Assembly: GCA_038203525.1 (NCBI GenBank)
Contig: JBBRDW010000033.1
Location: forward strand, 1-24,000
DNA from: Chitinophagales bacterium
GTDB lineage: Bacteria > Bacteroidota > Bacteroidia > Chitinophagales > Chitinophagaceae
Direction: 5' to 3'
DNA length: 24,000 nucleotides
Part shown: positions 3,137-23,166 of the stretch, piece after piece
How positions within the stretch are numbered: the first letter of the stretch is position 1
Layout: each line of letters opens with the position of its first letter
The notes under the pieces: generated by a model
Seen by the model: only the letters and a program-made list of their open reading frames with translations
The model's database searches: none
Told to the model about the DNA's origin: nothing
Made by a program: the position numbers and the translations under genes

Positions 3137-3155
3137 GTACAAGAGTGCGACGCAA
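3137..3155 (+). repeat. 19-bp core repeat GTACAAGAGTGCGACGCAA (exact)
   Basis: Exact 19/19 match, intergenic. It is followed 25 nt later by CCGGGCTAAAAAATATTA (3181-3198). Confidence 0.95.
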
Positions 3156-3453
3156 GAAAAGCTGCACAGCATATCTGCTGCCGGGCTAAAAAATATTACA
3201 CATAATATCTGCTTCCTGTTGCTAAAATACCGCTCCCCTTTAACGATGTGGATTTGCAGCTACATTCAGCAGTTGGTTTTTTGTGCAGAACTTAGATTGG
3301 TGCGGCGCAATTTTATAGCAGCCCTGATAAATGCGGCGCCAAACTCCCGGCTTTACCCAAACACAGGATATATAAAAAATCTTTTGCCAATTTGATTTGA
3401 ATTCGCATGCAACGGCATGAAGATTGCGCTTGTCTGTATAAAGAAAGCAGTTT

Positions 3454-4110
3454 ATGAAACACCAGCACACACCCCCCGAATACATTGACGAGTTTGGCCG
3501 CCCCCAGGAAAGAGCCAATATTTTAATTCACCTGCTGGGTGTTGTGTTTGGTGTATTGGCCATTCCCTTTTTACTTATTAGCGCAAAGCAGGGCGATACC
3601 AGCCACATGATTAGCCTGGGTATTTATGCTTTGTGTTTTTTAATGGTGTTCCTGAGCTCTACACTTTACCACAGCGTGCGGAGGTATAAAGTAAAAATGT
3701 TTCTTAAAAAAGTTGACCGTATAAGTATTTACTTTTTTATTGCGGGCACTTATACGGCGATTATACGGTTTTATCTTTTCGATGCTACCGGTTTTACCTT
3801 GCTGGCGGTTTTATGGACACTGGTTCTGGCCGGTATCTTCTTTGAAATTGTGTTCCCCGATAAATTCAATTTATTTTCTTTACTGGCTTACCTGGTAATG
3901 GGGCTGATCTTTGTATTTGTACCAAGGCAGTTCTTTTCTTCCATGCCCGCAGGTGTTATGGCTTTGGTGCTGGCGGGTGTGGGCCTGTATATATTTGGCG
4001 TAGTATTTTATGTGTGGCAGCGGTGGAGCTATCATCATGCTGCCTGGCATTTGTTCGTGCTGGCCGGGGGTGTTTGCCACTTTGCCGCGCTGCTGCAAAC
4101 AGTAAGTTAG
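3454..4110 (+). CDS. Hemolysin III / PAQR family membrane protein
   Basis: Seven predicted TM segments. Family landmarks present: STLYHS, DRISIYFFIAGTYT, HHAAWHLFVLAGGVCHF. Confidence 0.85.
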   Translation: MKHQHTPPEYIDEFGRPQERANILIHLLGVVFGVLAIPFLLISAKQGDTSHMISLGIYALCFLMVFLSSTLYHSVRRYKVKMFLKKVDRISIYFFIAGTYTAIIRFYLFDATGFTLLAVLWTLVLAGIFFEIVFPDKFNLFSLLAYLVMGLIFVFVPRQFFSSMPAGVMALVLAGVGLYIFGVVFYVWQRWSYHHAAWHLFVLAGGVCHFAALLQTVS

Positions 4111-4290
4111 TTGTACCGTTACCCTTTATTATTTTTATAGAAAACCCGCAATTTGCCTGTTAATATTTTTGTATCAGTCTCCACTACTACTATCAGGTTC
4201 TCGTTGCAGCTTGCCCCGCGCATGGCGCATATGCGGCAAGCTAAGGAATACATTTATTGACCCAACAGCATCGCTACTATTGAGTTTCCG

Positions 4291-4309
4291 TTGCGTCGCA
4301 CTCTTGTAC
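4291..4309 (-). repeat. 19-bp core repeat (exact, reverse orientation TTGCGTCGCACTCTTGTAC)
   Basis: Exact 19/19 match, intergenic, downstream of the hemolysin-III gene. Confidence 0.95.
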
Positions 4310-4503
4310 TTTTGGTTCTCTATGCGACTTTCAGAACTCAGTTGTTTTTTTTCCTTGCAAATGAAAGCGAAGATTATTCGGCAACGCATTAATATTTAAA
4401 ACTATTTACTAAATCTTCATTGCAAGACAACCTAAAACCATTACTGGTAAACACTTTCAGCGATTTTTGTCAAAAATTAGGTTGACGCATAAGCGCCCAT
4501 GGC

Positions 4504-4522
4504 GGTGGTCGCACGCTTGTAC
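4504..4522 (-). repeat. 19-bp core repeat, degenerate copy (14/19)
   Basis: GGTGGTCGCACGCTTGTAC. A weakly complementary partner GCGCAAGAGTTAGCTATGCGGCCAC lies at 4564-4588. Confidence 0.5.
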
Positions 4523-4704
4523 TGTAGTAGATATTTGCGCAATGGTGCATTATTAAGCAATGAGCGCAAGAGTTAGCTATGCGGCCACGGCCTATTATGT
4601 TTTCGATTTAAAGAATGATATAGTTAGATGGCAAATGCGCTGGACAAAAGCAATGCTCTTATTTACTTTTTGTCTTGACACAAAAAAAGGAACAAAAAAG
4701 TCAA

Positions 4705-4734
4705 GAAAGAAAAGATATACAACGCTTTTCTTTC
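4705..4734 (-). terminator. Possible intrinsic terminator downstream of vsr copy 2
   Basis: Perfect 10-bp stem GAAAGAAAAG / CTTTTCTTTC (4705-4714 / 4725-4734) with a 10-nt loop. On the minus strand it is followed by a T-rich tract. The stem is AT/purine-rich, so it is weak. Confidence 0.3.
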
Positions 4735-4841
4735 TTTCGCCCTGATTTTGCTTTTGAACTACTGTGAATTGAGCAATTGTACATTATTGGGCATTGAGCA
4801 CAGGGGTTAATTATGCTGTGGATATTTGCTGTGCTATTATT

Positions 4842-5294
4842 TTACTTCTTTAATCGGCGCACCAGCTTTTGTAGGGTGGCCGCTGCTTTTGCAGGCTTTA
4901 GGTCACACTCCCAAACGATGATAATTTTCCAGCCTTCTTTCTTTAAAGCTTTTACAGCTTTTGCATCATTGTCTTTGTTCATATTTATTTTTTGTACCCA
5001 CCATTCGCTGCTTGTTTGCGGAACTTTAAAATATAAACAGTTGGTATGCCCATGCCAGAAACAGCCGTGTATAAAGATTACGGTTTTATATTTTGGTAAA
5101 ACAATATCTGGTTTGCCGGGTAGTTGCTTTCGCCTTTCTTCTGTAGGAGAGGGGCGGGGGGTGAGGCCGTGCAGTTTATAACGAAAGCCCTGTGCATACA
5201 GAAATTTACGCACCAGCATTTCGGGCTTTGCCTTGGTGCTGCGTATGCGGCTCATATTGTAGCTGCGCTGTTCTTTGGTAGGCACATCGGCCAT
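4842..5294 (-). CDS. vsr: Very-short-patch repair endonuclease (Vsr), copy 2 (paralog of 2072..2524)
   Basis: MADVPTKEQRSYNMSRIRSTKAKPE...LPGKPDIVLPKYKTVIFIHGCFWHGH...VWEC. It is 150 aa, the same length as copy 1, and collinear with it. Confidence 0.92.
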   Translation of the reverse strand: MADVPTKEQRSYNMSRIRSTKAKPEMLVRKFLYAQGFRYKLHGLTPRPSPTEERRKQLPGKPDIVLPKYKTVIFIHGCFWHGHTNCLYFKVPQTSSEWWVQKINMNKDNDAKAVKALKKEGWKIIIVWECDLKPAKAAATLQKLVRRLKK

Positions 5295-5315
5295 CGTACA
5301 AAATAACCGTCTTAA

Positions 5316-5834: not shown

Positions 5835-6179
5835 AATAAACTTTTTTGATCAGACTTTAAGGTAGGTTAATTTACTTTTTTATTTCGCCGGATTATTACC
5901 GGCGGCATTTATCAGTGACTGTTTTTTTTAAGTGGTAAAATAATGCGGTTCTGTGCGAAAAAATCTGGAATGGAATGATATAAGCCGGGAAGTTATTATT
6001 TTGTTTACGCCATAGTTAAAGCAAAAAAATTTCACTTCTAACCAAAGCCACAGGGAAGCGCGTGCCGGCGTTTGTTTAGTTTACTGGCACAAAAATGTGT
6101 CTGTTATATAACTGATGACAACCGCGTTAAACATTATCATTGCCAAATCTAAAGCACTAACTTTATATAAAACCTGTGT

Positions 6180-7310
6180 ATGCAACCACTTCCGCTTACT
6201 GTAAAAAGATCTATAGAATTAATGGGCCTGGTATTGGCTGCAGCGATTGTAGTGCAAGGCCAGCAAATCATCATGCCCCTGCTCATGGCTTTTTTTATGA
6301 GCATTGTATTGCTACCCATTTACCGCTTTCTTAAAAAGCATAAAATGCCCGAATTGTTATCCATTTTTCTTTCACTGATGGTCATGATCATTATCATAAG
6401 CCTCATCATTTTTTTTATCAGTTCGCAGATAACGCCGCTTATAAAAGATTTTCCACAGATAAGGGAAAATATTACACGGCATATTAATGATTTAAGCGCA
6501 TGGTTTGGCGAAAGAACCAATATCTCTACAGTAGAACAATCCAAATTTTTAAACGACCAAAGTAATAATTTACTCAATTATGCGGCTAATATTTTAGGCG
6601 GTGCGGCGGGCACATTGGGTACTGCCTTTATCTTTTTTGGCCTGCTGCCAGTGTACACTTTTTTAATGTTGTACTACAAGGTAATCTTAATGCGGTTTGT
6701 GTATATGTGGTTTCCGCAGGAGAGCCATCCACGTGTAAAAGTAGTGGTACAGCAAACGGAAACTATTGTTAAAAGTTATATACTCGGCCTGCTGATACAG
6801 ATCACTTATATCACTATCTTACTGGGAGGTTCGCTCGCACTTTTTGGCATAAAGCACGCCCTGCTCATAGGTATTGTGTTTGGGGTGCTTAACCTTATAC
6901 CCTATATAGGCGCTTTGTTCGGTAATATTATCGGGGTGTTGTTAACCCTCAGTTCATCGCAGGATATTGGGCCGGTGATAACCGTGCTGGTAACCATAGC
7001 CGTGGTTCAGTTCCTCGATAATAATATTTTAATGCCCAGCATCGTGGGCTCTAAAGTAAGGATCAATGCACTGGTTTGTCTTGCCGGTGTCTTTATTGGT
7101 GGTGCACTGGCCGGTATACCCGGCATGTTTCTTTCGCTGCCGCTTATTGCCGTGTTTAAAGTTATATTCGATCATACAGACCGGTTTAAACATTGGGGTA
7201 TTCTTTTTGGTGACGAAATGGAGGCTAAAAAGCCAAACTTAAAAATTTTGAACTGGAAAAAGAATGCCGGACAAAACAGCGTAAAAAAGAAAAAGGAAGA
7301 ACAAGGTTGA
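6180..7310 (+). CDS. AI-2E family transporter (PerM/YhhT-like permease)
   Basis: Polytopic membrane protein of 376 aa. The C-terminal region LNLIPYIGALFGN...FLDNNILMPSIVGSKVRINAL...GIPGMFLSLPLIAV is typical of the family. Confidence 0.85.
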   Translation: MQPLPLTVKRSIELMGLVLAAAIVVQGQQIIMPLLMAFFMSIVLLPIYRFLKKHKMPELLSIFLSLMVMIIIISLIIFFISSQITPLIKDFPQIRENITRHINDLSAWFGERTNISTVEQSKFLNDQSNNLLNYAANILGGAAGTLGTAFIFFGLLPVYTFLMLYYKVILMRFVYMWFPQESHPRVKVVVQQTETIVKSYILGLLIQITYITILLGGSLALFGIKHALLIGIVFGVLNLIPYIGALFGNIIGVLLTLSSSQDIGPVITVLVTIAVVQFLDNNILMPSIVGSKVRINALVCLAGVFIGGALAGIPGMFLSLPLIAVFKVIFDHTDRFKHWGILFGDEMEAKKPNLKILNWKKNAGQNSVKKKKEEQG

Positions 7311-7343
7311 TGTATCCAGCTTTCGAACTTTCTTCAGCTTTGG

Positions 7344-7479
7344 TTGTGTCACTCACTTGTACGTTCAGCACTTTATTCAGCAATTAGCGGTCAGGTATCA
7401 GCAATAACAGCAAGCCGTGTTTCCAAACGCTGACTGATGAAAGCTGAAAGTTATTCTTAAGTACAAGAGTGCGACGCAA
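7344..7479. repeat. Composite A: inverted pair of core repeats (variant arm 7344-7362, exact arm 7461-7479) around a 98-nt self-complementary spacer
   Basis: TTGTGTCACTCACTTGTAC ... GTACAAGAGTGCGACGCAA. The spacer contains complementary blocks (TTCAGC/GCTGAA, CGGTCAG/CTGACTG). Confidence 0.9.
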
Positions 7480-7737
7480 CGATGTTGAATAAAGAACCCA
7501 CGCCTGGCCACAAAAGAAAAAATAAAAGTTAGCCGGGCAGCAAATGCCCGTGCTATAAAAAAATATTAAAACAGATAAACAGGTAGGTTAAACTGCTGGT
7601 TTAAACCATTGATTAAGTTACCTCCAAAATTACTATCCCACGCCTGACTTTGCCACCAATTAAGGCTAATGATTTGATAATTAACGAAAGCAGTTTTTTT
7701 TCGTTTCGCCCACTACAATAAGCATATTGAAGAAAAA

Positions 7738-9316
7738 TTTAGATCAATAAAAATTTTTCGCGGATCACTGGCATCAATTACATTACAGCTATTTATTGCT
7801 TTAGGGATGCTTCATTTTGGGAGCGAGAAGAGCGAATCTATACTTTTTTTATTATGTTTTACAAGGCTCACCTGCATCTTATCAGACGTTTTGCGCAGCG
7901 ATGTTTCGTTGAAAGTGGGCTTCGCTTTGTTCACCTTCTGTAGCACCAAATTCTGCAATGCAAATGCAATATATCATAAACAGATATTACCTTCTATTCT
8001 GCTGTATGTCCAATGAAACATGGGTCTTGTTTGCAAATTCGATTTGAAGGTGCGTAAGCTGTCTTCTATTTTATTTTCGTCTAAGGCATAAGCTTCTTTA
8101 CCATCGGATTTGAAGAACAACCGCGCTGGCTTTTGCTTGAGCAATCCAGGGTTTTCCAATAGCTTTTTGCCTGTTTACCGTTTGTCTTCCCAGTCGTGTT
8201 TATCCTTCTTTGCCCTGTTGGCGGAATAGGTAGCAAAGATTGTTTTGCCCTCCTGATTAATAGTAGGTGTACTTAATAACTACAGCTACATCAACATGAT
8301 TATTGTGTACCCACTCGTGCTTATAATTCGATAAATTAAGCAATGGCGCCTGTATGCTTTGGGTAAGGTTTTCAGCCTTTCACCTATAATAAATTCATAG
8401 CTTTTGCCAGTAGTAATTTGCAGGTTGTTGTTAGAGGGCATACCTCTGTCAGCAACTACAATTATTTTATCAATCTGGTACTGGTTCTGTAAATCATCCA
8501 ACGCTTTTTCAAACGTATGTCTTTCATAAGTATCTCCTTTAAAAATGCAATAGCCAATCGGGTTTTTATCCCTGTTTATTTTCATGCAAAAAAGTATTAA
8601 AGCATTGCCAATTTTACCATTTTTACCAAAACCCATCGGGCGCAGTTCACCTCCTTTTTGTACTTCATGCTCCAGATAAAAAGTAGTTGCAACATAAAAG
8701 ACAACATCTAATTTTTGATTAAATAAAACTCTGCCTGTTGTAAAAATTTGCTGTTGAATGAAAAAGCTGTTATGCTTGCTGCTGGGCTCTTGTAATCGTT
8801 CTAAGCGCATCAGAAAAACGCTATTGTATAAATTAAACTGAAGTTTACTTTTGTTCTCTATTCTTCTAAAAATATCGTGTAAACCATACTGTTGTAAAGC
8901 CTTACTTCAGATTTGCTGATACCCATAATTATACCTGCCAATTTTTTGAAGAGCTTCTTGCAGTAAAGCTTTTATTTGGCCTCCTCCTATTTCAAATAAC
9001 CTAATACCAATAGCTCTAAGCTGCGCCTCCATATAATCATCTACCTTGCCTAAGTGTATAAAATCCGATGCGTTGATTGGCCGCCTGCATTGCGATAGCT
9101 TTCCAGTATTCGCAAAAAAGTTGCTGATGCTTTTTTCTCCACTCTAAGAAATGGCATACTACAACACTACAGGGTACGATAGCAAAAATAAAACAGTGAG
9201 AAAAAATCGGCTCACTGCATTTTTTTGCAAATCAAGTAATACCATTTTTCAGCAATCAGCTTCAGGATATTTCAAAAATGGATGTGTCAAAGTCAAGAAA
9301 AATGTATTGATCTAAA
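7738..9316 (-). mobile_element. IS1634-like (IS4-superfamily DDE) insertion sequence remnant with candidate terminal inverted repeats
   Basis: TTTAGATCAATA at 7738-7749 has its exact complement TATTGATCTAAA at 9305-9316, and adjacent ATTTTTC blocks also match. The pair encloses the transposase fragments. The element is about 1.58 kb. Confidence 0.5.
7974..9157 (-). pseudogene. IS1634-family transposase, broken by frameshifts and stops
   Basis: The N-terminus from complement 9155-9157 reads MPFLRVEKKASATFLRILESYRNAGGQSTHRIL. The frame then shifts near 9055 into LGKVDDYMEAQLRAIGIR. The middle fragment 8286..8810 carries DKIIVVADRGMPSNNNL (DDE region). The C-terminal fragment 7974..8159 carries RPMFHWTYSRIEGNICL. 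Confidence 0.75.
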
Positions 9317-9342
9317 AATCAGCAGCCGGCTAAAATAAAAAA

Positions 9343-9366
9343 GGTCGGTTCATTGCTGAACCAACC
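9343..9366 (-). terminator. Intrinsic terminator of the TonB-dependent receptor gene
   Basis: Hairpin GGTCGGTTCA-TTGC-TGAACCAACC with one G-U pair on the minus-strand transcript. On the minus strand it is followed by TTTTTTATTTT. It lies 29 nt after the stop. Confidence 0.65.
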
Positions 9367-9394
9367 TTTTTAATAGAGGGGAAATATTGATAAC

Positions 9395-12196
9395 TTAAAA
9401 CTTAAATACCACTGAGGCATTAAATGTAGTTCCCAACTGGCTAAACTGCGAACCGTTATAGCCAAGTATGCGGTACCTTCCGCTGAACTCTAAGAAACCT
9501 TCGAGCAAATTCTTTGCAGCAGCATCGTCAAGAACTGATTGCCCGGAAGAGTTAAGGGCTTCCAGTTTCCATTTAGGCAATACATTAAAGATATTGTTTA
9601 CCGTAAAGTTTGCAGATATTTTGCTGCTGAAATTGTAACCCAGGTTCAAGTCGGTAACAATAGCCGGGGTAAATTTCTGAATGATATTCTCCATATCAGA
9701 CCTGCCATTGTCTAAATCCTGGAACTCAGTTGGCCCAAACAAAGTATTGTTGAGGTTAAAGCTCCATTTGCTTACGTTATAATCAAAGCCAAGTATTCCC
9801 TTGTATTTAGGGCGGCTTTTGGTAAGCAGGGAAATGATCTGTGTATTAAGGATGGTTGAACCGGCATTTTTAATTGCAGCGGGATCGTTTGGTTTACCAA
9901 CAATTTCATTCCTGGTAGTGTAATTAGCAGCAAGATTAATACCCAATTTGCCGGTGCCAATAGCAATATTTTTGTAATTGGCTACAAAGTCTAAACCTGA
10001 AGTGCGGGTTTTAATACCGTTTATGAAAAACTGTATGCTAACCACATCAGCAGCCTGCAATATTTGGTAAAGCTCGGTGCCTGGATCATTTGAGCTAATA
10101 GATGAACTGTATACAATTCTGTCGCGTATGGTAATATCATAATAATCCAAAGTAATGCTGAAATTCTTTGAAGGTTTTGCGCCAATACCGACTGTAAAGT
10201 TTGTTGACTTCTCAGGTTTTAATTTAGGTACACCTAACAGGAATGCCTGTTTGCTGTTGTTATTAAATAAGCCTGAACTTACAATAGTACCACCTGCAAA
10301 AGAAGCCTGTGTTGACTGTGCATAAATCTGGTGCAGCGTTGGCGCACGAAAGCCGGTAGAAACTGAACCTCTAACAACAAAATTGTCACCGTCAAGTTTT
10401 ACACGGGTAGATCCGCGATACACGAATGCGCTTCCAAAGTCGCTATATTTTTCACCACGCACTGTACCATTAATAAGCCAGTCTTTGGTAACGTTTAAGC
10501 TTGCATCGAAGTAACCACCAATATTATACCTGCTGAATACACCTGAATTTTCCTGGCGGATACCTGGGAAAGAGTTTGCACCTTCTCCGGAAAATGATGC
10601 AGTGTCTCCTGCTACAATTTTATAAGTTTCTTTTCTTGCCTCCGTACCAAAACCTATGGCAAAATTATCTGTTACGCTTTTAGAGATATCAATATTACCT
10701 ACCACATTGCTAAAACCGTAACCGCCTGGTTTAAAAGCAGTATTGCTGGCTTTAAGCAATGAGCGGTTTACAGTATTATTTACTGCATACAACTGCTGAT
10801 TGCCCCCGACCGTTACACTTATATCCTGTTTCCAGCCATTGGTTTCATTTTTAAAACCGGCTGTGGCATTATAGTCTGTCAGGTCTCCTTCAAAGGTTGG
10901 CTGATAGCCAATATACCCCTGGTAAACACCGGCAGCTTTATCAGCCTCAAAATCGTTCTGAAGTTGTGAACCTTCCGATCCGTAGCTTGAACCAGTATAG
11001 TCTGCCGCACCTGGAGAAGGAGCGTGCAATAACCCTTCGTCAATTCTCCAGTAAGCCGGACGATAGTTTGCATTACTGAAAACTTTTTTGGTTACAAAAG
11101 CTGCATTACTGTAAAACATTCCTTTATCACCAACAGGTACACCAAGGTTGTAAAGGAACTTTGATGCCGTAGTGGTACCTGTACCATTATTATTATTGGC
11201 ATCAGGGTATCTCTGCAAATAAGACCTGATGGCTGCGTCAGTAACATCGTCTCCACCGAACGTGGCTATTTCTGTAGGTACATCAACAATACCAGACCTG
11301 CGGGCATTATCCTGCTGATCAAATGCTACGGTATAATTGATAAATCCTTTGCTGCCAAAATTAGCTCCGCCGTTAAGAGACAAGCCATAAGAACCGCCGT
11401 CACCTTTACTTGTACCACCACCATTAAGGGTGACGGAACTGTATTGGTATCTGTCTTTTAATATCACGTTCATTACACCGGCAATGGCATCAGAACCATA
11501 TTGAGCCGATGCACCGTCACGCAGAATCTCCACGTTTTTAATCGCATCAATCGGAATTCCGGAAAGGTCTGCGCCTGTTTCTCCACGGCCCGGTGAGAAC
11601 TGCACGTAAAGCAGTGAACTCAGGTTCTTTCTTTTACCATTAATAAGTATCAATGTACGGCTAGGCCCCAGGTTCCTTATTTCATACGGATCCAAAAGTG
11701 TAGAAGCATCATTTACCGGTGTATTTACCGTATTGAACGAGGGTACCCGGTATTGCAGCGTCTTATCAAAACTTTGCTGGCCCGTGCTTTTTAACGAAGC
11801 CGCATCAACATTATCAACTGGTAACGCAGAGCTTACTGAAGAACGGGGAACAGAGCGGGTACCCACCACATAAATATCCTGAAGTGCTTCACCGCTTTCG
11901 ATCAGGGTAATGTTAAGGACTGTCTGTTGACCATCGGTAATGGTAACTTTTGAACTTTGTGGGGCAAATCCAACGTTAGAAAATGTAATGGAGTAAGTTC
12001 CGGCTGTAAGCTTGAGGGAATATTTCCCATCTTTATCGGTAGTAGTACCCCCACCTTTTGAGCTAACCACACTGGCATTTTCCAGAGGCTTGCCACTGCC
12101 TGTTACGGTACCGGATAATGTACCCTGGGCCTGCACTATTAATGGAAACAAAAACAGCATTAATAAACTAGCAGCGAGCAGTTTTACTTTTCTCAT
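9395..12196 (-). CDS. TonB-dependent outer-membrane receptor with N-terminal carboxypeptidase-regulatory-like domain
   Basis: 933 aa with a signal peptide, a CarbopepD_reg-like segment (GTLSGTVTG...DGKYSLKL..GTYSITFS), a plug region (..ILINGKR..DIPIDAIKNVEILRDGASAQYGSDAIAGVMNVIL) and a beta-barrel ending in terminal F. Confidence 0.92.
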   Translation of the reverse strand: MRKVKLLAASLLMLFLFPLIVQAQGTLSGTVTGSGKPLENASVVSSKGGGTTTDKDGKYSLKLTAGTYSITFSNVGFAPQSSKVTITDGQQTVLNITLIESGEALQDIYVVGTRSVPRSSVSSALPVDNVDAASLKSTGQQSFDKTLQYRVPSFNTVNTPVNDASTLLDPYEIRNLGPSRTLILINGKRKNLSSLLYVQFSPGRGETGADLSGIPIDAIKNVEILRDGASAQYGSDAIAGVMNVILKDRYQYSSVTLNGGGTSKGDGGSYGLSLNGGANFGSKGFINYTVAFDQQDNARRSGIVDVPTEIATFGGDDVTDAAIRSYLQRYPDANNNNGTGTTTASKFLYNLGVPVGDKGMFYSNAAFVTKKVFSNANYRPAYWRIDEGLLHAPSPGAADYTGSSYGSEGSQLQNDFEADKAAGVYQGYIGYQPTFEGDLTDYNATAGFKNETNGWKQDISVTVGGNQQLYAVNNTVNRSLLKASNTAFKPGGYGFSNVVGNIDISKSVTDNFAIGFGTEARKETYKIVAGDTASFSGEGANSFPGIRQENSGVFSRYNIGGYFDASLNVTKDWLINGTVRGEKYSDFGSAFVYRGSTRVKLDGDNFVVRGSVSTGFRAPTLHQIYAQSTQASFAGGTIVSSGLFNNNSKQAFLLGVPKLKPEKSTNFTVGIGAKPSKNFSITLDYYDITIRDRIVYSSSISSNDPGTELYQILQAADVVSIQFFINGIKTRTSGLDFVANYKNIAIGTGKLGINLAANYTTRNEIVGKPNDPAAIKNAGSTILNTQIISLLTKSRPKYKGILGFDYNVSKWSFNLNNTLFGPTEFQDLDNGRSDMENIIQKFTPAIVTDLNLGYNFSSKISANFTVNNIFNVLPKWKLEALNSSGQSVLDDAAAKNLLEGFLEFSGRYRILGYNGSQFSQLGTTFNASVVFKF

Positions 12197-12455
12197 AACT
12201 TGTTATTAGTTTGGTTCAGAAGCTAAAATATCGAATTTATTGATAAGTCATTTTTTTGTTAAGGGAACAGCCGAAACTACAATCTGAAGTAACCCCATTT
12301 TAATTTGGTTAGTTCGTTATTTTCCAGGTCAGCATTTCTGCTTGGTAGCTATCCATTATTTTACTGATTGTATTGCGATTGCTCTGGCAGCTGCAGTTTT
12401 AGACCAATAAAATACAAGGTTATTAACCCAGCTTTGGTAGTACAATTAAACATTA

Positions 12456-12474
12456 TTGCGTCGCACTCTTGTAC
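12456..12474 (-). repeat. 19-bp core repeat (exact, reverse orientation)
   Basis: Exact 19/19 match in the divergent intergenic region between the TonB receptor and the Rieske gene. It overlaps only the implausible upstream extension of ORF 12469..13695. Confidence 0.95.
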
Positions 12475-12612
12475 AGTTTTTCCACTATTCCGCATGTGCC
12501 AGAGGTAAAACTAATTAACCGGCTTTTATATATTCCGGATGTGGCATTGTATAATAAAGTAGCTACCAGTGCTCCCTTCAAAATAATTAACTTCGGCAAA
12601 ATTGTTTTCCAC

Positions 12613-13695: not shown

Positions 13696-13944
13696 AAAAT
13701 TGATAGTAGCTTTTAGCTGCGTGCGACCAGCTTTGTAGTATGGGTTTTAAGTTGCTGCATAAACATAAACAATAACAATAGCCATCCTCTGGCAGAACGA
13801 AGACCCATCAAAAAATAAATATGGGGCACAAAAATATTCTACTGGTTTACCACTGCACAAGTTTAGCTTTGAACGATTAATAACAAATGAGGGTTTTTTA
13901 TTCCTGCCAGGGCTTAAAAGCCTTCACTCAAAATATCGAAATTC

Positions 13945-14928: not shown

Positions 14929-15090
14929 AATAATTTTACAGGAAACTGTTAAGTGTTTATGCTGCCACAGACTTTGGGTACAATTTATTTGTAATTTATT
15001 TGGTTCAAAAACAAGCTCTTGAACGGAAAGTTTTTTATTGGTAAGGTGAAATTTTTTTGGCCCGGCTACAAATCTTTGTTTAATCTTTTG

Positions 15091-15225
15091 TTGCGTCGCA
15101 CACTTGTACTTTTGGTAATAATGGCGGCAAATTCTGTGCAGTACGTAGCCTGCCGCCGTTTGCTATTTTAAAAGGCTGCTGCACATTGCCCAAAAAAGAA
15201 CAAGGCGTACAAGTGAGTGACACAA
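15091..15225. repeat. Composite C: inverted pair of core repeats (18/19 arm 15091-15109, variant arm 15207-15225) around a 97-nt self-complementary spacer
   Basis: TTGCGTCGCACACTTGTAC ... GTACAAGTGAGTGACACAA. The right arm is the exact reverse complement of the variant arm at 7344-7362. The spacer contains GGCGGCA/TGCCGCC, TGTGCAG/CTGCACA and TTTTGG/CCCAAAA pairs. Confidence 0.9.
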
Positions 15226-15339
15226 CAGGTGCCTAATAGCAGCAATGCAGCCCGGTATAAAATATTTACTGTAGAAATTAAAATCCCGTTCTGAATTTTC
15301 GGAAGAGATTTTTTTCTCTCATGCGCAAATTTCTTTAAG

Positions 15340-16287
15340 CTAACTGTATATGGCAACTTCGTTTAAACCGGTATTATTTTTTGCGCCACGGTACATGCCA
15401 GCACTGTTAAAAACCATCAATGCATTGCCCTCTGCATCAACTCCAATCATGCCGCCTTCGCCACCGATCTTTACCAGTTTATCGTGCACCACAATATTCA
15501 TCGCCTCCTGTAAGCTAAGGCTTTTGTACTCCATTAAACAACTTACATCGTACGCAGCAACGGTTCGTATAAACATTTCGCCATGCCCCGTACAGCTGAT
15601 GGCGCAGGTATGGTTATTTGCATAGGTTCCGCAACCGATCATGGGGCTATCGCCAATCCGGCCATACTTTTTATTCGTCATGCCACCAGTGCTGGTGGCA
15701 GCAGCTATGTTGCCGTTTATATCGCAGGCCACCGCGCCAACAGTACCAAACTTTTTATCTTTCATCAGCTCTTCCAGTTGCTGATGGGTATGATCGAGTG
15801 AGTAGTTATCAGAGTCGCGGATGGCTTTCCACTGATCGTAACGAAACTGTGAAAAGAAAAACTCGTCGGGCTCTAATTTTATGCCTTGTTTAATGGCAAA
15901 ATCGTTGGCGCCTTTGCCACTTAAAAAAACGTGATTGCTGTTGCGCATTACTTCAGTTGCAAGCTCAATTGGATTGCGCACATTACGAACACCGCTTACT
16001 GCGCCGGCATTTAAAGTGCTGCCATCCATAATTGCGGCATCCATTTCCTGTACCCCCTTTTTGGTAAATACAGAACCGCGGCCGGCATTGAAAAGCATAT
16101 TATCTTCCAAAATAACCAAAGCTGCTTTTACAGAATTAACGGCAGAACCTCCTTCTTCCAATACCGCAAAACCAGCGTCTAATGCTGCCTGCAGGCCATT
16201 GAGATAAGCGAGTTCCAGTTCGGGGGTCATGTCTTCTTTAAGAATAGTACCTGCGCCGCCATGTAACACCAGAGTATATTTTTCCAT
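15340..16287 (-). CDS. iaaA: Isoaspartyl peptidase / L-asparaginase (Ntn hydrolase, IaaA-like)
   Basis: LVLHGGAG N-terminus. Autoprocessing site KFGTVGAVACD, then TSTGGMTNKKYGRIGDSPMIGCGTYA. Confidence 0.88.
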   Translation of the reverse strand: MEKYTLVLHGGAGTILKEDMTPELELAYLNGLQAALDAGFAVLEEGGSAVNSVKAALVILEDNMLFNAGRGSVFTKKGVQEMDAAIMDGSTLNAGAVSGVRNVRNPIELATEVMRNSNHVFLSGKGANDFAIKQGIKLEPDEFFFSQFRYDQWKAIRDSDNYSLDHTHQQLEELMKDKKFGTVGAVACDINGNIAAATSTGGMTNKKYGRIGDSPMIGCGTYANNHTCAISCTGHGEMFIRTVAAYDVSCLMEYKSLSLQEAMNIVVHDKLVKIGGEGGMIGVDAEGNALMVFNSAGMYRGAKNNTGLNEVAIYS

Positions 16288-17016: not shown

Positions 17017-17209
17017 TTGTCGCCAGGTGCAAAGTAATTTTTTAGCTCAGCTGTATAACATCAAAGATGCTTATACTGTAGCTTGCCCGCCGATTCGGCA
17101 GCCGCAAGCTCATAAGTTCAGCACTTAACTAAACAGTAAGGAACGAACATGGAATAATTACCTGCTGATCATCCAGGGCCTCTTTGCCTTGCTGCCTTTA
17201 GTTAACAAA

Positions 17210-17228
17210 GTACAAGCGTGCGACGCAA
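17210..17228 (+). repeat. 19-bp core repeat (18/19: GTACAAGCGTGCGACGCAA)
   Basis: One mismatch. It is followed by AAGCCCGATAAGAATTACCTAAGCCCGGCTAATAAAAATTATTTA (17230-17275). A possible decayed partner ATGCTTATACTGTAG lies at 17067-17081. Confidence 0.9.
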
Positions 17229-17335
17229 CGAAGCCCGATAAGAATTACCTAAGCCCGGCTAATAAAAATTATTTATTAAGTTACCTTGCTATCATTTATC
17301 TTCAAACTGTGAACTAAATACTGTAAAGGAAAACT

Positions 17336-18175
17336 ATGGCTGTAAAACTTATTGCCGACAGTGGCTCTACCAAATGTGAGTGGTGCCTGCTGGTTGACGG
17401 TAAAAGGAAAAAAATAATAACACAAGGCATTAGCCCGTATTTTCTCAATGAAGAGCAGGTGGTTAGCATTCTGCAAAAAGAACTCCTTGGCAAAATAAAA
17501 AACGTTGTGGTTGACGAGATTTTTTACTATGGTACAGGCCTCGCCAATCCCGAAAACGGCAGGTTTATAAAACGTGCTTTAAAGAAGGTTTTTCCGGCTG
17601 CGAAAATTGCAGCAGAAATAGATTTGCTTGCTGCGGCAAGAGCTGTTTGTGGTCACCATAAAGGTATAGCCTGCATATTGGGCACCGGCTCAAATTCCTG
17701 TTATTTCAACGGCAGGAAGATTGTGAAAAATAGTCCCGGCCTTGGCTACGTGCTTGGCGACGAAGGCAGCGGTGCTTATCTGGGCAAAAAAGTAATACAG
17801 CATTTTCTTTACAATACATTTGATGAGGACCTTTTGCTGCGCTTCAATAAACAGTTTAATACCAATGCTAATGAAATACTGGAACATGTTTATAAAATGC
17901 CGCAACCAAACCGCTACTTGGCTTCGTTCGCTATTTTTCTCGCTGAGAACCGCGACCATTTTATGATAGAAAATATTATTGAAGACGGCCTGAATGATTT
18001 CTTCTTTACCCATTTGAACAAGTACCGTGAAAGCTGGTTATATCCAATTAGTTTTGTTGGCAGTGTGGCATATGGTTTTAGAGATGTGCTTAAGAATTTA
18101 TGCAACACTTACGAGCTGGAACTTGGCAATGTTTTAAAGCAGCCAATGGATGGGCTGATCGCTTACCACCAATAA
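17336..18175 (+). CDS. BadF/BadG/BcrA/BcrD-type ATPase; N-acetylglucosamine / N-acetylmuramic acid kinase-like (MurK-like)
   Basis: N-terminal ADSGSTKCEW phosphate-1 motif, ILGTGSN, and GYVLGDEGSGAYLG. It sits immediately upstream of murQ (6-nt gap). Confidence 0.8.
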   Translation: MAVKLIADSGSTKCEWCLLVDGKRKKIITQGISPYFLNEEQVVSILQKELLGKIKNVVVDEIFYYGTGLANPENGRFIKRALKKVFPAAKIAAEIDLLAAARAVCGHHKGIACILGTGSNSCYFNGRKIVKNSPGLGYVLGDEGSGAYLGKKVIQHFLYNTFDEDLLLRFNKQFNTNANEILEHVYKMPQPNRYLASFAIFLAENRDHFMIENIIEDGLNDFFFTHLNKYRESWLYPISFVGSVAYGFRDVLKNLCNTYELELGNVLKQPMDGLIAYHQ

Positions 18176-18180
18176 AATTT

Positions 18181-18996
18181 ATGAGTGAATTTATCCGCAT
18201 TACTGAGCAGCCATCTCAATACAGGCACTTGGAAAAAATGAGTATAAAAGAGATTGTTACCAATCTTAACAATGAAGACAAAACGGTTGCTTACGCCATA
18301 GAAAAAAAGTTACCAGCCATTGAAAAACTAATTACAGCGATAGCAGATAAAATGCTGGCAGGCGGTAGGTTATTTTATGTTGGCGCAGGTACCAGCGGCA
18401 GGCTTGGTATATTGGATGCAAGTGAGTGCCCGCCTACTTATGGTGTTCCTTTTGGTTTGGTTACGGGCATCATAGCCGGCGGCGAAACTGCCATAATAAA
18501 ATCCGTGGAAGATGCCGAAGATAATACCTTGCAGGGATGGCTCGATTTGCAGCAGCATAGTATTTGCGACAAAGATTTTGTAATAGGTATTGCCGCCAGC
18601 GGTACCACGCCATATGTTATCGGCGCACTGCAGCATTGTAGAGAAAATAGTGTGGAAACCGGTTGCATAACCAGCAATGAAGGCAGCCCGCTTGCGGCTG
18701 TGGCTGATCATAAAATTGAAGTGGTAGTTGGGCCGGAAGTTGTTACAGGAAGTTCCCGCATGAAGAGTGGCACCATGCAGAAAATGATCTTAAACATGAT
18801 CTCTACAACCGTAATGATCCAGTTGGGAAGGGTAGAGGATAACCGCATGGTAAACATGCAACTCAGCAACGAAAAACTGGTAGACCGCGGCGTTAAAATG
18901 TTAATGGAAAAAATAAACACCAACGATTATGAAGCTGCAAAAAAATTACTCCTTCAATACGGCACAGTAAAAAAAGCAACCGATGCAGTTAAGTGA
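18181..18996 (+). CDS. murQ: N-acetylmuramic acid 6-phosphate etherase
   Basis: GGRLFYVGAGTSGRLGILDASECPPTYGV and VVTGSSRMKSGTMQKMILNM match E. coli MurQ landmarks. I moved the start to ATG 18181 (MSEFIRIT) instead of the overlapping track start at 18100. Confidence 0.92.
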   Translation: MSEFIRITEQPSQYRHLEKMSIKEIVTNLNNEDKTVAYAIEKKLPAIEKLITAIADKMLAGGRLFYVGAGTSGRLGILDASECPPTYGVPFGLVTGIIAGGETAIIKSVEDAEDNTLQGWLDLQQHSICDKDFVIGIAASGTTPYVIGALQHCRENSVETGCITSNEGSPLAAVADHKIEVVVGPEVVTGSSRMKSGTMQKMILNMISTTVMIQLGRVEDNRMVNMQLSNEKLVDRGVKMLMEKINTNDYEAAKKLLLQYGTVKKATDAVK

Positions 18997-19043
18997 TAAA
19001 TACATTTTATGAACCGGGCAATAGAACATGAATGAGGCTTTAC

Positions 19044-19062
19044 TTGCGTCGCACTCTTGTAC
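19044..19062 (-). repeat. 19-bp core repeat (exact, reverse orientation)
   Basis: Exact 19/19 match. The upstream flank 18997-19043 is the reverse-complement homolog of the flank following the 20899 copy (AAGCCTCATTCAT..GCCCGG..AAAAT). Confidence 0.95.
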
Positions 19063-19139
19063 TTTCTCAATAAAATTCAGCCATGACGTACCAGTGAAAC
19101 AAATCGAAAATCTAAGATCTAAAAATCGCAAATCAAATC

Positions 19140-19541: not shown

Positions 19542-19543
19542 GC

Positions 19544-20158: not shown

Positions 20159-20201
20159 GATGAATAGTTTTATAAAGCAAAGCTGCTGACTTCTAAAAAA
20201 T

Positions 20202-20228
20202 AAAATCTTGGTCTACACCAAGATTTTT
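20202..20228 (-). terminator. Intrinsic terminator downstream of the Crp/Fnr gene (bidirectional-looking)
   Basis: Perfect 11-bp stem AAAATCTTGGT / ACCAAGATTTT with loop CTACA. An A6 run lies on one side and T-runs on the other. It lies 10 nt after the stop of the minus-strand gene. Confidence 0.6.
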
Positions 20229-20237
20229 GAAAAGCAA

Positions 20238-20822: not shown

Positions 20823-20898
20823 ACGCTAAAGTATCAATTTACAAACATAACACGAGTTGTTTTACCCGCTGCGATAAAAGCCCAATATTCCGCTGAAC

Positions 20899-20917
20899 GT
20901 ACAAGAGTGCGACGCAA
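20899..20917 (+). repeat. 19-bp core repeat (exact)
   Basis: Exact 19/19 match in the divergent region between crp-like and dinB. It is followed by CGGAAGCCTCATTCATATTCCCAAGCCCGGCACAAAATATC (20918-20958). Confidence 0.95.
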
Positions 20918-20979
20918 CGGAAGCCTCATTCATATTCCCAAGCCCGGCACAAAATATCTTTTCTAACTTAGCTGCATCA

Positions 20980-22155
20980 ATGAATAAGCCGCAACGATAT
21001 ATAGCTCATTTTGACCTGGATTCTTTTTTTGTGAGTGTGGAAGTGTTGAACGACCCATCGCTCAAAGATAAGCCGGTACTAGTTGGCGGTAGCGCAGAAC
21101 GCGGCGTGGTGGCGGCTTGCAGCTATGCGGCGCGAAAGTTTGGTATTCATTCTGCCATGCCCATGAAGAAAGCGATGCAGCTTTGTCCGCATGCAATTGT
21201 CGTGCGTGGTACCCGTGGAGAATACAGCCGGTTTTCGCGCTGGGTTACCGAAATTATTGCAGCTAAAGCACCGCTGTTTGAAAAGGCCAGCATCGATGAA
21301 TTTTATATTGACCTTACGGGCATGGATAAATATTTTGATGTGTTTCAATGGACAATTGACCTGCGGCAGGAAATAATTGATAAAACACAGTTACCCATTT
21401 CATTTGCCCTTGCTACCAATAAAATGATTGCGAAGATTGCTACGGATGAAGCCAAACCCAATGGCTATATTTTTATACAGCCAGGCAGGGAGAGAGAATT
21501 TTTGGCGCCGTTACCGGTGAATAAAATTCCGGGTGTGGGCGGGCAAACTTTTATAACGCTAAAGGAAATGGGCATTAATCTTATTGGCGATATAAATAAA
21601 CACAGTGTTGAAGAACTGGAGAAAAAATTAGGCAAATGGGGCGTTGATTTGTGGAGCAAATCGTATGGCCTGCATTTTAATGAAGTGCATCCTTATCACC
21701 AAGCAAAATCTATTTCCACGGAAAATACTTTTGAGGAGAATAAGACCGACGTGGAATTTTTACTGAGTGAACTGGTGCGCATGACAGAGAAAATTGCTTT
21801 TGAACTGCGGCAGGATGAAAAGCTTGCAGGTTGCATTGCTGTAAAAATACGTTATCCCGATTTTGAAACTACGTCCAGGCAAACGACTATTAACTATACT
21901 TTTCGGGACGATGAGCTTATACCCGCAGCCATGAATCTGTTTCATAAACTCTACCGAAAAGGAAATCCCATACGCTTGCTGGGTGTACGTTTGAGCGAAT
22001 TAACCAATGAAGCCGTGCAAGGGAGTTTGTTCGATGATGGCATTAAGAAGACCAATCTTTATAAAGCAATAGACGCTGTAAAAATTAAATTTGGAAAAAG
22101 CTTGTTACAGAAAGCAAGAACCGTTAAGAAAGGGGAATCGGGAAATGAAGAATGA
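20980..22155 (+). CDS. dinB: DNA polymerase IV (Y-family)
   Basis: IAHFDLDSFFVSVE (catalytic DxD..FF), SIDEFYIDLTG, and AKIATDEAKPNG are Y-family landmarks. Confidence 0.92.
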   Translation: MNKPQRYIAHFDLDSFFVSVEVLNDPSLKDKPVLVGGSAERGVVAACSYAARKFGIHSAMPMKKAMQLCPHAIVVRGTRGEYSRFSRWVTEIIAAKAPLFEKASIDEFYIDLTGMDKYFDVFQWTIDLRQEIIDKTQLPISFALATNKMIAKIATDEAKPNGYIFIQPGREREFLAPLPVNKIPGVGGQTFITLKEMGINLIGDINKHSVEELEKKLGKWGVDLWSKSYGLHFNEVHPYHQAKSISTENTFEENKTDVEFLLSELVRMTEKIAFELRQDEKLAGCIAVKIRYPDFETTSRQTTINYTFRDDELIPAAMNLFHKLYRKGNPIRLLGVRLSELTNEAVQGSLFDDGIKKTNLYKAIDAVKIKFGKSLLQKARTVKKGESGNEE

Positions 22156-22254
22156 AAAATGAAGAGCTTAAATGCAACAAAGCAATAAACTGAAAACTAA
22201 CAACTGTAAACGCTAAGCATAAAAAATTAGTCCACTTATTTTGTAGGAAACTAA

Positions 22255-22262
22255 TATATTTG
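22255..22262 (+). promoter_or_regulatory. Candidate Bacteroidota -7 promoter box TATATTTG upstream of the peroxiredoxin gene
   Basis: Matches TAnnTTTG, 19 nt before ATG 22282. No well-spaced -33 TTTG is seen. Confidence 0.3.
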
Positions 22263-22281
22263 TTAGCCAAAACAAATATAT

Positions 22282-22920
22282 ATGGGTTTACGATTAGGCG
22301 ATGTTGCACCAAATTTTAAAGCAACCACCACAGCAGGCGACATAGACTTTTACGAGTACCTGGCTGCAGGCTGGGGAATTTTGTTTTCGCATCCGGCGGA
22401 TTTTACACCTGTATGTACAACAGAACTTGGCAAAACAGCTTTGCTAAAGGAAGAATTTGCAAAACGAAATGTAAAAGTGCTTGCAGTTAGTATTGATCCG
22501 CTAGATAAGCACAACAGCTGGCTGAACGATATCAATGAAACCCAAAATGTAACCGTTGGCTTTCCGCTCATTGCAGATGAAGACCGAACAGTTGCAACCT
22601 TATACGATATGATTCATCCCAATGCTTCTTTAACGGCTACCGTACGTTCATTATTTATAATTGGGCCAGACAAACTGGTAAAACTCATGATCACTTATCC
22701 TGCCTCAACCGGCAGAAATTTCATCGAAGTTTTGCGGGTAGTAGATTCTCTGCAGTTAACTTCAAACTACAGCGTAGCAACGCCTGCCGATTGGAAAGCA
22801 GGTGAAGATTGTATAGTAGTTCCAGCTGTAAGTACCGAAGATGCGATTAAAAAGTTTCCCAAAGGTGTTAAGGTGGTAAAGCCTTATTTGCGCTATACCC
22901 CGCAGCCAAATATCGATTAG
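22282..22920 (+). CDS. 1-Cys peroxiredoxin (Prx6-like)
   Basis: GDVAPNF...WGILFSHPADFTPVCTTELG contains the peroxidatic Cys motif PVCTTE. The 212-aa length fits 1-Cys Prx. Confidence 0.9.
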   Translation: MGLRLGDVAPNFKATTTAGDIDFYEYLAAGWGILFSHPADFTPVCTTELGKTALLKEEFAKRNVKVLAVSIDPLDKHNSWLNDINETQNVTVGFPLIADEDRTVATLYDMIHPNASLTATVRSLFIIGPDKLVKLMITYPASTGRNFIEVLRVVDSLQLTSNYSVATPADWKAGEDCIVVPAVSTEDAIKKFPKGVKVVKPYLRYTPQPNID

Positions 22921-22944
22921 TTTTTCATGTGTATTCTTAGTTTT

Positions 22945-22977
22945 AACCCCGGTGAAATTAGGCATCGGGGTTTTTTT
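22945..22977 (+). terminator. Intrinsic terminator after the peroxiredoxin gene
   Basis: CCCCG (22947-22951) pairs with CGGGG (22966-22970), followed by T7. The loop is long (14 nt), so confidence is moderate. Confidence 0.5.
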
Positions 22978-23012
22978 ATGGGCCGGGCAGCCGTACCCTG
23001 TGGCAACGTTCC

Positions 23013-23166
23013 TTGCGTCGCACTCTTGTACTTTGGGGAAGTATAGCAGCAAGTTCACGTGTTCAACAGTTCACGAGTTAACTACGCCGTTTACATTTAA
23101 AAGCCCGTAAACCTTTGAACTTGTGAACTGCTTCAACTTATTCTTAAGTACAAGAGTGCGACGCAA
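23013..23166. repeat. Composite B: inverted pair of exact core repeats (23013-23031 and 23148-23166) around a 116-nt self-complementary spacer
   Basis: TTGCGTCGCACTCTTGTAC ... GTACAAGAGTGCGACGCAA, both 19/19. The spacer pairs AGTTCACGTGTTCAACAGTT with AACCTTTGAACTTGTGAACT, and GTTTAC with GTAAAC. Confidence 0.95.

Follow-up and report, generated by a model that had tools for sequence, protein, structure and literature searches.

A candidate family of REP/REPIN- and ERIC-like intergenic repeats with an exactly conserved 19-nt core in the Chitinophagaceae

Why does one asymmetric 19-nt sequence, GTACAAGAGTGCGACGCAA, recur between the genes of an ordinary stretch of a Chitinophagales genome? The stretch, referred to below as the window, comprises the first 24 kb of contig JBBRDW010000033.1; its G+C content is about 40%, it contains no tRNA genes and its gene content is ordinary. 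The original prediction, made from the letters of the window, was of a dense intergenic repeat consisting of the bare 19-mer. We find instead that what recurs is a longer, oriented unit: it measures about 100 nt and has the 19-mer as its core, between an upstream part and a tail. We propose, with a probability of roughly 50%, that these units make up a new family of interspersed intergenic repeats of the Chitinophagaceae, akin to repetitive extragenic palindromic (REP) sequences, to their hairpin-forming doublets (REPINs) and bacterial interspersed mosaic elements (BIMEs), or to enterobacterial repetitive intergenic consensus (ERIC) sequences, the core being the predicted recognition site of a trans-acting factor. 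This family-wide repeat appears to have remained undescribed so far.

The core and the unit that carries it

A core search recovered all eight exact copies of the original prediction, at 3137(+), 4291(−), 7461(+), 12456(−), 19044(−), 20899(+), 23013(−) and 23148(+), together with its two copies bearing one mismatch, at 15091(−) and 17210(+), both of which deviate at position 8. That such copies are not expected by chance was borne out by 100 dinucleotide shuffles of the window, which gave no match, against 10 copies with at most one mismatch in the real sequence. The sequence at 7344(−) and 15207(+), first described as a 15/19 variant, is also present: it reads GTACAAGTGAGTGACACAA (type B, the main form being type A) and is exactly conserved elsewhere, with 17 exact copies at 13 other loci. 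Type B is thus a second conserved core type and not a decay product. The last predicted copy, a 14/19 match at 4504(−), is real but built differently: its first 15 bases match the core at 17210 (15/15), after which the sequence is interrupted (GTACAAGCGTGCGAC followed by CACCGCC...GCGTCAAC).

Alignment of the copies, their information profile and a profile search concur in defining the repeated entity as an oriented, non-coding unit of about 95–110 nt. From one end to the other, it consists of a weakly conserved upstream part of about 35–45 nt, a 5′ flank GTACAAG(W)G, a central mini-palindrome, a 3′ flank CAA(C/G) and a loose tail. The core has the pattern GTACAAG-W-GTGCGACGCAA-S. The tail is marked by a GCCSGGC heptamer at +43, about 24 nt downstream of the core (GCYSGG in the window copies), and by an A-run from +51 to +58. 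In the information profile the consensus is aAatGcT.AAtaAA.atC.aAaa upstream, GTACAAG(A/T)GTGCGACGCAA(C/G) in the core and gAA.G.T.AAtA...gC.GGg.cAAAAAAA downstream, and one subfamily aligns with sharp ends from about −35 to the A-run in four genomes, at 79–85% identity. A search with a profile of the whole unit (positions −45 to +75) gave 12 strong units for the window, at E values between 1e-9 and 1e-19; their summed length is 1163 nt, i.e. 4.8% of the window.

The central mini-palindrome is TGCGACGCA in type A, GTGACAC in type B and a GC-rich stem-loop in about 10% of the units. Type B differs from type A by the changes C12T and G16A, which retain the mini-palindrome (GCGACGC to GTGACAC); since these are two CpG-decay changes, we count them as one inherited event and not as independent covariation. 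Type B is enriched in the doublets described below, where it is mostly partnered with type A. Note that both CpGs of the type A core are altered in type B, and that decay of the tail heptamer GCCSGGC is mainly by C-to-T or G-to-A changes (GCTGGGT, GTTGGGT, GCCTGGC, GCTGGAT; for example at 4252–4262, 7499–7507, 12424–12432 and 23190–23198). Judging from the sequence, these tail and core changes are consistent with deamination driven by cytosine methylation, in a genome that has C5-methyltransferase and Vsr genes.

In the long forms, the GC-rich stem-loop replaces the central GCGACGC or sits within it, with an intact GTACAAG.G(T) and CAA(S) on either side. The stems vary: CCGCC-TGA-GGCGG and CCCGC-CTT-GCGGG at positions 7057 and 3955, respectively, of the related locus L130, and CCCGCC-GC-GGCGGG in L058. 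An insert CCCCGAG...CTCGTCGGGG is present in L042, L127 and L131, and inserts likewise occur in L047, L088, L103 and at 4504 in the window. The CCCCGAG..TCGGGG insert lies at three non-orthologous sites, always within cores and never elsewhere; we rejected the idea that the hairpin is an independent mobile mini-element, as it was never seen outside cores. Because the long forms have real stem-loops at the palindrome, of which the dominant form keeps a 9-nt vestige, the unit has the layout of a REP sequence (5′ flank, palindrome, 3′ flank). The statement that the core is not itself a hairpin is true of the main form, but its TGCG-A-CGCA motif is the very site of the stem-loop in the long forms.

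Placement, pairing and strand

Crude open reading frames (ORFs) make up 79% of the DNA of the window and of 108 related loci, and 169 of the 175 copies with at most two mismatches lie outside them (p about 6e-104). The six remaining copies are either upstream of the true start codon, the overlap being an artefact of ORF calling, or touch only the last 10 codons or so; coding copies number 0–1 of the 175. In the window itself, all copies lie between credible genes. The ORFs that they touch (12469.., 20673.., 22762.. and 3240..) are alternative-start or antisense artefacts, and the sole overlap with a gene is that of the 7344 unit, whose tail covers the last 8 nt of gene 6180–7310. The claim that the repeat avoids genes is thereby upheld. 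The window has 13 intergenic regions that measure 100 bp or more, and nine of them contain a unit or doublet. At one related locus (L066, 7605–7635, −), the core overlaps the last 10 or so codons of an ORF whose C-terminus resembles that of a type I restriction S subunit, and the repeat appears to provide the C-terminal tail and stop codon of that ORF. The genes next to units or enclosed by them are diverse, and the share of units in co-directional, convergent and divergent intergenic regions is about that expected for intergenic DNA. A regulon of one gene family and a cargo transposon were both rejected, as the flanked genes are diverse and a recurrent transposase is absent.

On its tail side, a unit looks towards the end of a gene 97 times and towards a gene's start 61 times; 24 units lie between divergent genes. 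In 47 of the 97 tail-to-gene-end cases the stop codon is 30–69 nt from the core, so that the T-run of the tail starts 0–20 nt behind the stop codon and sometimes provides it. Stop codon distances have a second peak at 90–109 nt, as would be expected if a terminator hairpin lay in between; the peroxiredoxin gene of the window is an example. In co-directional regions, 53 of 85 units have the reverse-complement strand on the sense strand of the genes and 32 the opposite one (p = 0.03). Both peaks and this strand bias could be accounted for by an RNA-level element of 3′ untranslated regions, reading T-run, GCCSGGC, 24 nt, GTTGCGTCGCACTCTTGTAC and UUU on the strand of the upstream gene and serving the mRNA for termination, processing or stabilisation, or for the binding of a protein or of a complementary small RNA. 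Read on that strand, long forms have a GC-rich hairpin followed by the U-rich ACUCUUGUACUUU, and 19 contiguous invariant bases would suit base pairing.

We nevertheless hold an RNA-level role to be improbable, in view of the 61 of 158 units that face gene starts, the 24 found between divergent genes and the occurrence of both orientations throughout the loci. Proviruses are instructive in this respect. IMG/VR contigs have the exact core in 15 stretches, and a 36.9-kb myovirus-like provirus (L133 and L136, IMGVR_UViG_3300020047_016721) holds eight units, a host-like density. These units lie between integrase, terminase, portal, head-protease and sheath genes (for example at 2488, 4458, 7071 and 13240 in L133), and, in a cluster of co-directional genes, they point either way; one of the cores begins 8 nt past the stop codon of the integrase gene. 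Because this co-directional late-gene cluster holds both orientations, a strong terminator, which would be polar within phage structural operons, and a strand-specific RNA role are both disfavoured. The main form also lacks a hairpin followed by a U-run: on the gene strand the T-run comes before the GC-rich heptamer, and canonical terminators are separate, such as that at 22935–22975.

Nor does the main form display a conserved fold, covariation or a fold-energy signal. RNAalifold applied to single units returned a trivial 4-bp pairing and no consensus structure, and mutual information over 163 copies revealed neighbour effects only; on these grounds, and because per-copy DNA folds and Rfam yielded nothing, a structured RNA or single-unit hairpin was rejected. 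We also rejected a sigma-70-type or Bacteroidota promoter (−33 TTTG/−7 TAnnTTTG): consensus scans for promoters and terminators were negative and, on both strands, TAnnTTTG had no preferred position, no offset being shared by more than 8 of 200 units. ECF-like (extracytoplasmic function) and sigma-54-like promoters, assessed by eye on the aligned copies, were discarded as well, the partner element that they need falling in non-conserved sequence. Finally, the variable positions 8 and 20, being 12 nt apart, hinted at a codon phase and hence at a small ORF running through the reverse-complement core. This possibility was rejected: type B turns LRRTLV into LCHSLV, start codons are inconsistent and stops lie at variable distance.

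The units are often paired. Among the pairs less than 400 bp apart, 20 of 22 are head-to-head, with the cores facing each other and the tails outward (p about 1e-10); the starts of the two cores are 25–187 nt apart, with a mode of about 99. More generally, orientation alternates between neighbouring units in 83 of 105 cases. The doublet spacers are not conserved, and they fold better than shuffled sequences (z below −2 in 8 of 23, median z −1.7); several do not fold, and the three doublets of the window yield z values of +0.25, −1.06 and −5.9. The units were originally set apart from classical REPs, which is justified as regards the non-folding main form. The REP layout, the stem-loops of some copies and the inverted, often folding doublets bring them closer to REPs than was proposed.

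Spread, descent and origin of the units

The exact 19-mer was searched in one genome per GTDB species. Far from being confined to the window, it occurs in at least 108 stretches, all from Chitinophagaceae, Chitinophagales or unclassified Bacteroidetes metagenome-assembled genomes (MAGs). At least 12 genera of Chitinophagaceae are represented, those with names including Segetibacter, Ferruginibacter, Foetidibacter, Flavisolibacter, Limnovirga, Lacibacter, Pinibacter, Flavihumibacter, Puia, Niabella and Chitinophaga. Across the 108 loci, 171 copies have at most three mismatches and 132 are exact. The estimated density is 5 units per 10 kb in the window and 2–5 in UBA4407, GL140 and Limnovirga; extra units are nearly absent from most other genomes, and the more distant loci around murQ contain 0–1 units per 10–20 kb. 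The unusual density noted originally is therefore real in the window, but it varies more than 10-fold among lineages and is a property of one clade (Panacibacter/Limnovirga-like), not of the family. The PolIV protein of the window is 94% identical to that of Panacibacter sp. UBA4407. The contigs of the unit-rich GL140 MAG are short.

A short, asymmetric, family-wide motif that locally occurs once per 2 kb in both orientations, often as inverted pairs behind genes and with AT-rich flanks, calls to mind DNA uptake sequences (DUS) and uptake signal sequences (USS); the motif would then build up in natural transformation, through biased uptake of DNA and its recombination. Coding DNA, where DUS and USS are common, is essentially devoid of the present motif. 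Moreover, the motif is carried on homologous units of about 100 nt that share descent at non-orthologous sites and so did not arise by point mutation; a single genome, and even a single doublet, can have both core types; the density is far from uniform among relatives; and units abound in a provirus. An uptake signal is thus very improbable.

The shared descent of the units shows in their flanks: 52 pairs of units have at least 60% flank identity, versus none in column shuffles. As mean flank identity is at background level, we regard the units as old and diverged, with a faint subfamily structure and an exact core. The GCCGAAG-type subfamily, for instance, has upstream sequence common to two unrelated loci, L122 and L127, and members of a subfamily turn up in different genomes at sites that are not orthologous, and also in prophages. 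Flank-sharing subfamilies at non-orthologous sites, together with two propagating core lineages, argue for copying rather than for the independent evolution of sites.

The fate of the units at orthologous sites is mixed. Between the genes for the TonB-dependent receptor and the Rieske oxygenase, the window has an exact core and L076 the same core in the same orientation, with flanks that are essentially unalignable, the genes being 70–75% identical at the DNA level; after the Rieske gene, L076 has an intact unit where the window has a probable decayed relic. After murQ, the window core is exact, L130 has an intact unit and the L122 core has four mismatches. Before polIV, the core is exact in the window, has one mismatch in L131 and takes the long form in L130 (22-nt hairpin insert); in L127 it is decayed at 9 of 20 positions, the tail being kept. 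After the peroxiredoxin gene, the window has a doublet and all four relatives compared have a unit, with differing 5′ heptamers. In other syntenic genome pairs, units are conserved in 3–4 cases, absent in many and of opposite orientation in one pair. Two puzzles remain. Cores are exact while their flanks have sunk to background identity, and orthologous copies switch form, being short in some genomes, long in others and decayed in still others; neither a young burst of a mobile element nor plain neutral decay accounts for these puzzles.

An exact core amid randomised flanks, found even at orthologous sites of genomes about 72% identical, is what one would expect of a host cis-element, in which the 19–20-bp core would be the site of an abundant, family-specific DNA-binding protein (nucleoid-associated or boundary) that marks the edges of transcription units, and would be kept by purifying selection. 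The usual presence of one unit or doublet per intergenic region, as in the nine occupied regions of the window, the host-like density of prophages and the two orientations found in co-directional clusters fit such a double-stranded DNA site, and the central 9-bp palindrome could suit a dimeric binder. We consider this explanation unlikely, all the same. Close relatives with the same genes have 0–1 units per 10–20 kb and orthologous sites are often empty or decayed, so that the element is dispensable; the subfamilies and core lineages described above point to copying; and the replacement of the palindrome stem by unrelated GC-rich stems is hard to reconcile with base-specific recognition of double-stranded DNA.

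The two puzzles leave some room for a related view, distinctly unlikely in our opinion, in which the core is more than the handle of a selfish repeat: a family-wide 19–20-nt address that a conserved protein or guide nucleic acid of the host would read. The core would then be held exact at thousands of intergenic sites and in resident prophages, as a form of genome punctuation or self-marking maintained by selection or by templated correction or conversion, and the switching of orthologous copies between the short form and the hairpin insert would be a by-product.

The different inserts found at an identical point of the core, the switching of an orthologous copy between short and long forms and the provirus core next to an integrase gene could mean that the core is a target. 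In neisserial intergenic mosaic elements (NIME), variable modules surround a conserved repeat of about 20 bp, dRS3; this repeat is inverted and split, and it serves as a target for phages or insertion sequences. The units share with dRS3/NIME a conserved repeat of about 20 bp amid variable intergenic modules and a mosaic look, so that the core might likewise be a recognition, insertion or attachment site of integrative elements or insertion sequences, the variable surroundings and hairpin inserts being remnants of recombination. We regard this as quite improbable. The core is asymmetric, unlike dRS3, and on inspection its build is not that of a tyrosine-recombinase core site, with its inverted arms and spacer. 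Across some 1 Mb of loci, no kilobase-scale element splits a core, and adjacency to an integrase gene is a single case.

We return to the interpretation that we favour, that of a REP/REPIN- or ERIC-like repeat family. Our searches matched the units to no named repeat, in keeping with the original prediction. Rfam gave no match in the window at E ≤ 1 and, in 54 kb of loci that include long forms, three chance-level matches, none of them at units; the annotated plasmid and annotated phage collections contained no match to the sequence; and the sequence was not found in the full text of papers, where searches on repeats in Chitinophagaceae or Bacteroidetes were likewise negative. REPINs combine an oriented repeat with a central palindrome, inverted doublets, and conserved repeats with non-conserved, hairpin-prone spacers (PMC3337134). 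The present units resemble them in their extragenic site, oriented repeat with a central palindrome, preferred inverted doublet and A/T runs at the doublet ends, as well as in their long persistence, lineage-specific abundance, conserved repeats and non-conserved but often foldable spacers (PMC3337134). A high copy number and the joining of two unit types in inverted doublets are further likenesses to REPs and REPINs. On the other hand, the palindrome of the dominant form is only 9 nt long and does not fold, the exact core extends over at least 12 genera, a REP sequence being as a rule confined to one species or genus, and the host phylum is Bacteroidota. REPs are often placed just behind stop codons, as the units are here; those associated with RAYTs (REP-associated tyrosine transposases) have the 5′ tetranucleotide GTAG or GTGG, where the units have GTAC.

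ERIC sequences are intergenic, about 100–130 nt long, conserved across genera and hugely variable in copy number, and they exist as length variants due to internal deletions or insertions at fixed points. The units are like them in behaviour only, namely in size, spread across genera, variable copy number and short and long forms: an ERIC sequence is a long imperfect palindrome conserved throughout, whereas here only 19–20 nt are conserved and the single unit is not palindromic. Transposable elements of the miniature inverted-repeat type (MITEs), such as the Correia element, are also short, non-coding, intergenic and sometimes found in prophages, and the inverted ends of the doublets recall them. 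In the units, however, the most conserved part is internal, the copies are not alike along their length (35% mean identity outside the core), and no terminal inverted repeats, target-site duplication or parent insertion sequence were found.

How might such units multiply? We suggest a DNA enzyme, acting in trans and inherited vertically, that would copy units or doublets and maintain the uniformity of their cores; a RAYT-like HUH/Y1 transposase or another recombinase would be a candidate. This enzyme would recognise the 5′ flank, the palindrome and the 3′ flank and would put copies at A/T-rich sites just outside coding regions, the remainder of the unit being free to drift. Any influence on the host, such as an effect on the local structure of the DNA or on the ends of mRNAs, would be secondary, a view also proposed for REPs.

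The window does contain a Y1 transposase gene, at 1498–1941 (+). Its 148-aa product belongs to the IS200/IS605 family of NCBIfam and has more than 120 homologue clusters at 77–95% identity, each on few contigs, several of which were named RayT by the Joint Genome Institute. Its flanks carry modules of their own, 100 nt long with three GC-rich hairpins and unrelated to the 19-mer units (989–1088, 1129–1228, 1308–1348 and 1943–2045), with two tandem modules upstream, an inverted part and one module downstream; an array similar to these modules is present in L089 (827–1357). A link between the units and this IS200/RayT-like gene was rejected, since its flanks carry other repeats and its homologues elsewhere have no adjoining units. 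Membership of a REP–RAYT system is not established: the main form lacks the hairpin, and the only Y1 gene examined does not adjoin units.

Several observations weigh against the copying of units by an enzyme. A recently active copy-and-paste element should leave near-identical copies, and identity outside the core averages 35%, the value of column-shuffled controls; even within one provirus, exact cores are embedded in dissimilar flanks. Some units are kept at orthologous sites, again with an exact core and randomised flanks, in genomes whose genes are about 70–75% identical (DNA), and such retention means that purifying selection for a host function fits as well as a selfish element does. The orthologous comparisons revealed no clean filled-versus-empty site, target-site duplication or excision footprint; our attempt to derive the exact ends of the element in this way failed, all candidate pairs having non-orthologous or hypervariable flanks. 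As to the enzyme, no recurrent transposase lies between or beside units in the window and related loci, neither the Y1 gene, the only Y1/RayT-like gene available, nor its homologues in six other contexts are flanked by units, and about 1 Mb of loci contains no further Y1 gene, though a different RAYT may lie outside these loci. Lastly, the dominant form of the unit does not fold alone, unlike classical REPs (z from −0.4 to +1.9 as single-stranded DNA).

The units of the window, their neighbours and the meaning of the family

Units 1 and 2 bracket a single gene (3454–4110, hlyIII/TrhA-like), tails inward. Unit 1 (3098–3206, +; profile E = 7e-19) has an exact type A core at 3137–3155, and relatives of its subfamily elsewhere are 79–85% identical to it across 72–93 nt. 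Unit 2 (4243–4341, −), detected by the core search, the profile and as inverted repeat I3, has an exact type A core at 4291–4309 and points its tail towards the gene end. Next to it, an interrupted, long-form-like unit (4470–4547, −) has a core that runs from 4522 downward as GTACAAGCGTGCGAC, the insert CACCGCCATGGGCGCTTATGCGT and CAAC; the profile matches it in part (4508–4547, E = 0.03), and its extent below 4508 was judged by eye. The first doublet associates unit 3 (7303–7395, −; type B core GTACAAGTGAGTGACACAA at 7344–7362, found with the profile and the type B search) on the left with unit 4 (7444–7523, +; exact type A core at 7461–7479, found with the core search and the profile) on the right, in head-to-head arrangement with core starts 99 nt apart. 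This doublet aligns as a whole with one in L050, at 70% identity over 180 nt.

Unit 5 (12419–12510, −; exact type A core at 12456–12474) occupies the divergent region between the TonB-dependent receptor gene, which starts at 12196, and the Rieske oxygenase gene (at about 12613). The tentative relic after the latter gene (..CTGCGTGCGACCAGCTTTGTAG.., approximately 13700–13745, −) lies at the site of the intact L076 unit and was seen by alignment only, the profile having missed it. The second head-to-head doublet consists of unit 6 on the left (15042–15140, −; type A core at 15091–15109 with A8T; core search and profile) and unit 7 on the right (15166–15275, +; type B core at 15207–15225), with core starts 98 nt apart; the tail of unit 7 is directed towards the end of the asparaginase gene (15340–16287, −). 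Unit 8 (17178–17280, +; type A core at 17210–17228 with A8C), which has an orthologous counterpart in L130, precedes a BadF/GlcNAc-kinase-like gene at 17336. In unit 9 (18995–19095, −; exact type A core at 19044–19062; core search and profile), the tail starts at the stop codon of murQ, which ends at 18996. Unit 10 (20861–20968, +; exact type A core at 20899–20917) makes up most of the 157-nt divergent region between a Crp-like gene and dinB/PolIV. The third doublet pairs unit 11 (22970–23062, −; exact type A core at 23013–23031), whose T-run is common to the intrinsic terminator of the peroxiredoxin gene, on the left with unit 12 (23138–23213, +; exact type A core at 23148–23166) on the right; the core starts are 117 nt apart, and as single-stranded DNA this is the doublet with a good fold (z = −5.9).

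Upstream of the peroxiredoxin gene, a stretch of 50 nt (AAAAAATTAGTCCACTTATTTTGTAGGGAATTGATATATTTG; 22230–22282) is strongly conserved in the orthologous loci L127, L130 and L131 and has a TAnnTTTG-type box at its end; on the strength of its sequence, it is probably the promoter of that gene. The stretch starts exactly at the position of a unit's A-run in L127. Tandem A-rich heptamer repeats (AAACTNN, AATGAAG, GTGAACA) are found at 22144–22165 in the window and in L130 (about 1620–1680), L131 (about 1880–1930) and L127 (about 12190–12300), just before start codons, just behind stop codons or in doublet spacers, and their length differs among close relatives. As for other genes of the window, a cytosine-C5 methyltransferase-like frame (1–520, −) runs past the window start, and two vsr paralogues for the Vsr mismatch endonuclease (2072–2524 and 4842–5294, both −) are 83% identical over 300 nt; the pairing of the Y1 gene with vsr is seen again in L151 and L152. 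An IS1634-family transposase fragment (8286–8810, −) matches positions 114–251 of a 483-position profile with 94.6 bits, below the 100-bit cut-off, and the region around it (about 7530–9390) has neither credible long genes nor units.

If the window is representative, about 5% of the genome and most of its intergenic regions would belong to one repeat family that is undescribed in the libraries and papers searched. This matters for annotation, as units start at stop codons and fill promoter regions, and their density and inverted doublets are likely to break short-read assemblies. The core could be used as a family-specific handle for polymerase chain reaction (PCR) and fingerprinting, and could mark metagenomic contigs and proviruses as belonging to Chitinophagaceae hosts. 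To our knowledge, systems of the REP/REPIN type have been studied almost only in Proteobacteria, and the present family would extend repeats of this type to Bacteroidota. An exact 19-mer spread over at least 12 genera beside flanks that have drifted would be an unusually clean case of a long-preserved recognition sequence, which should help in finding its partner enzyme or protein.

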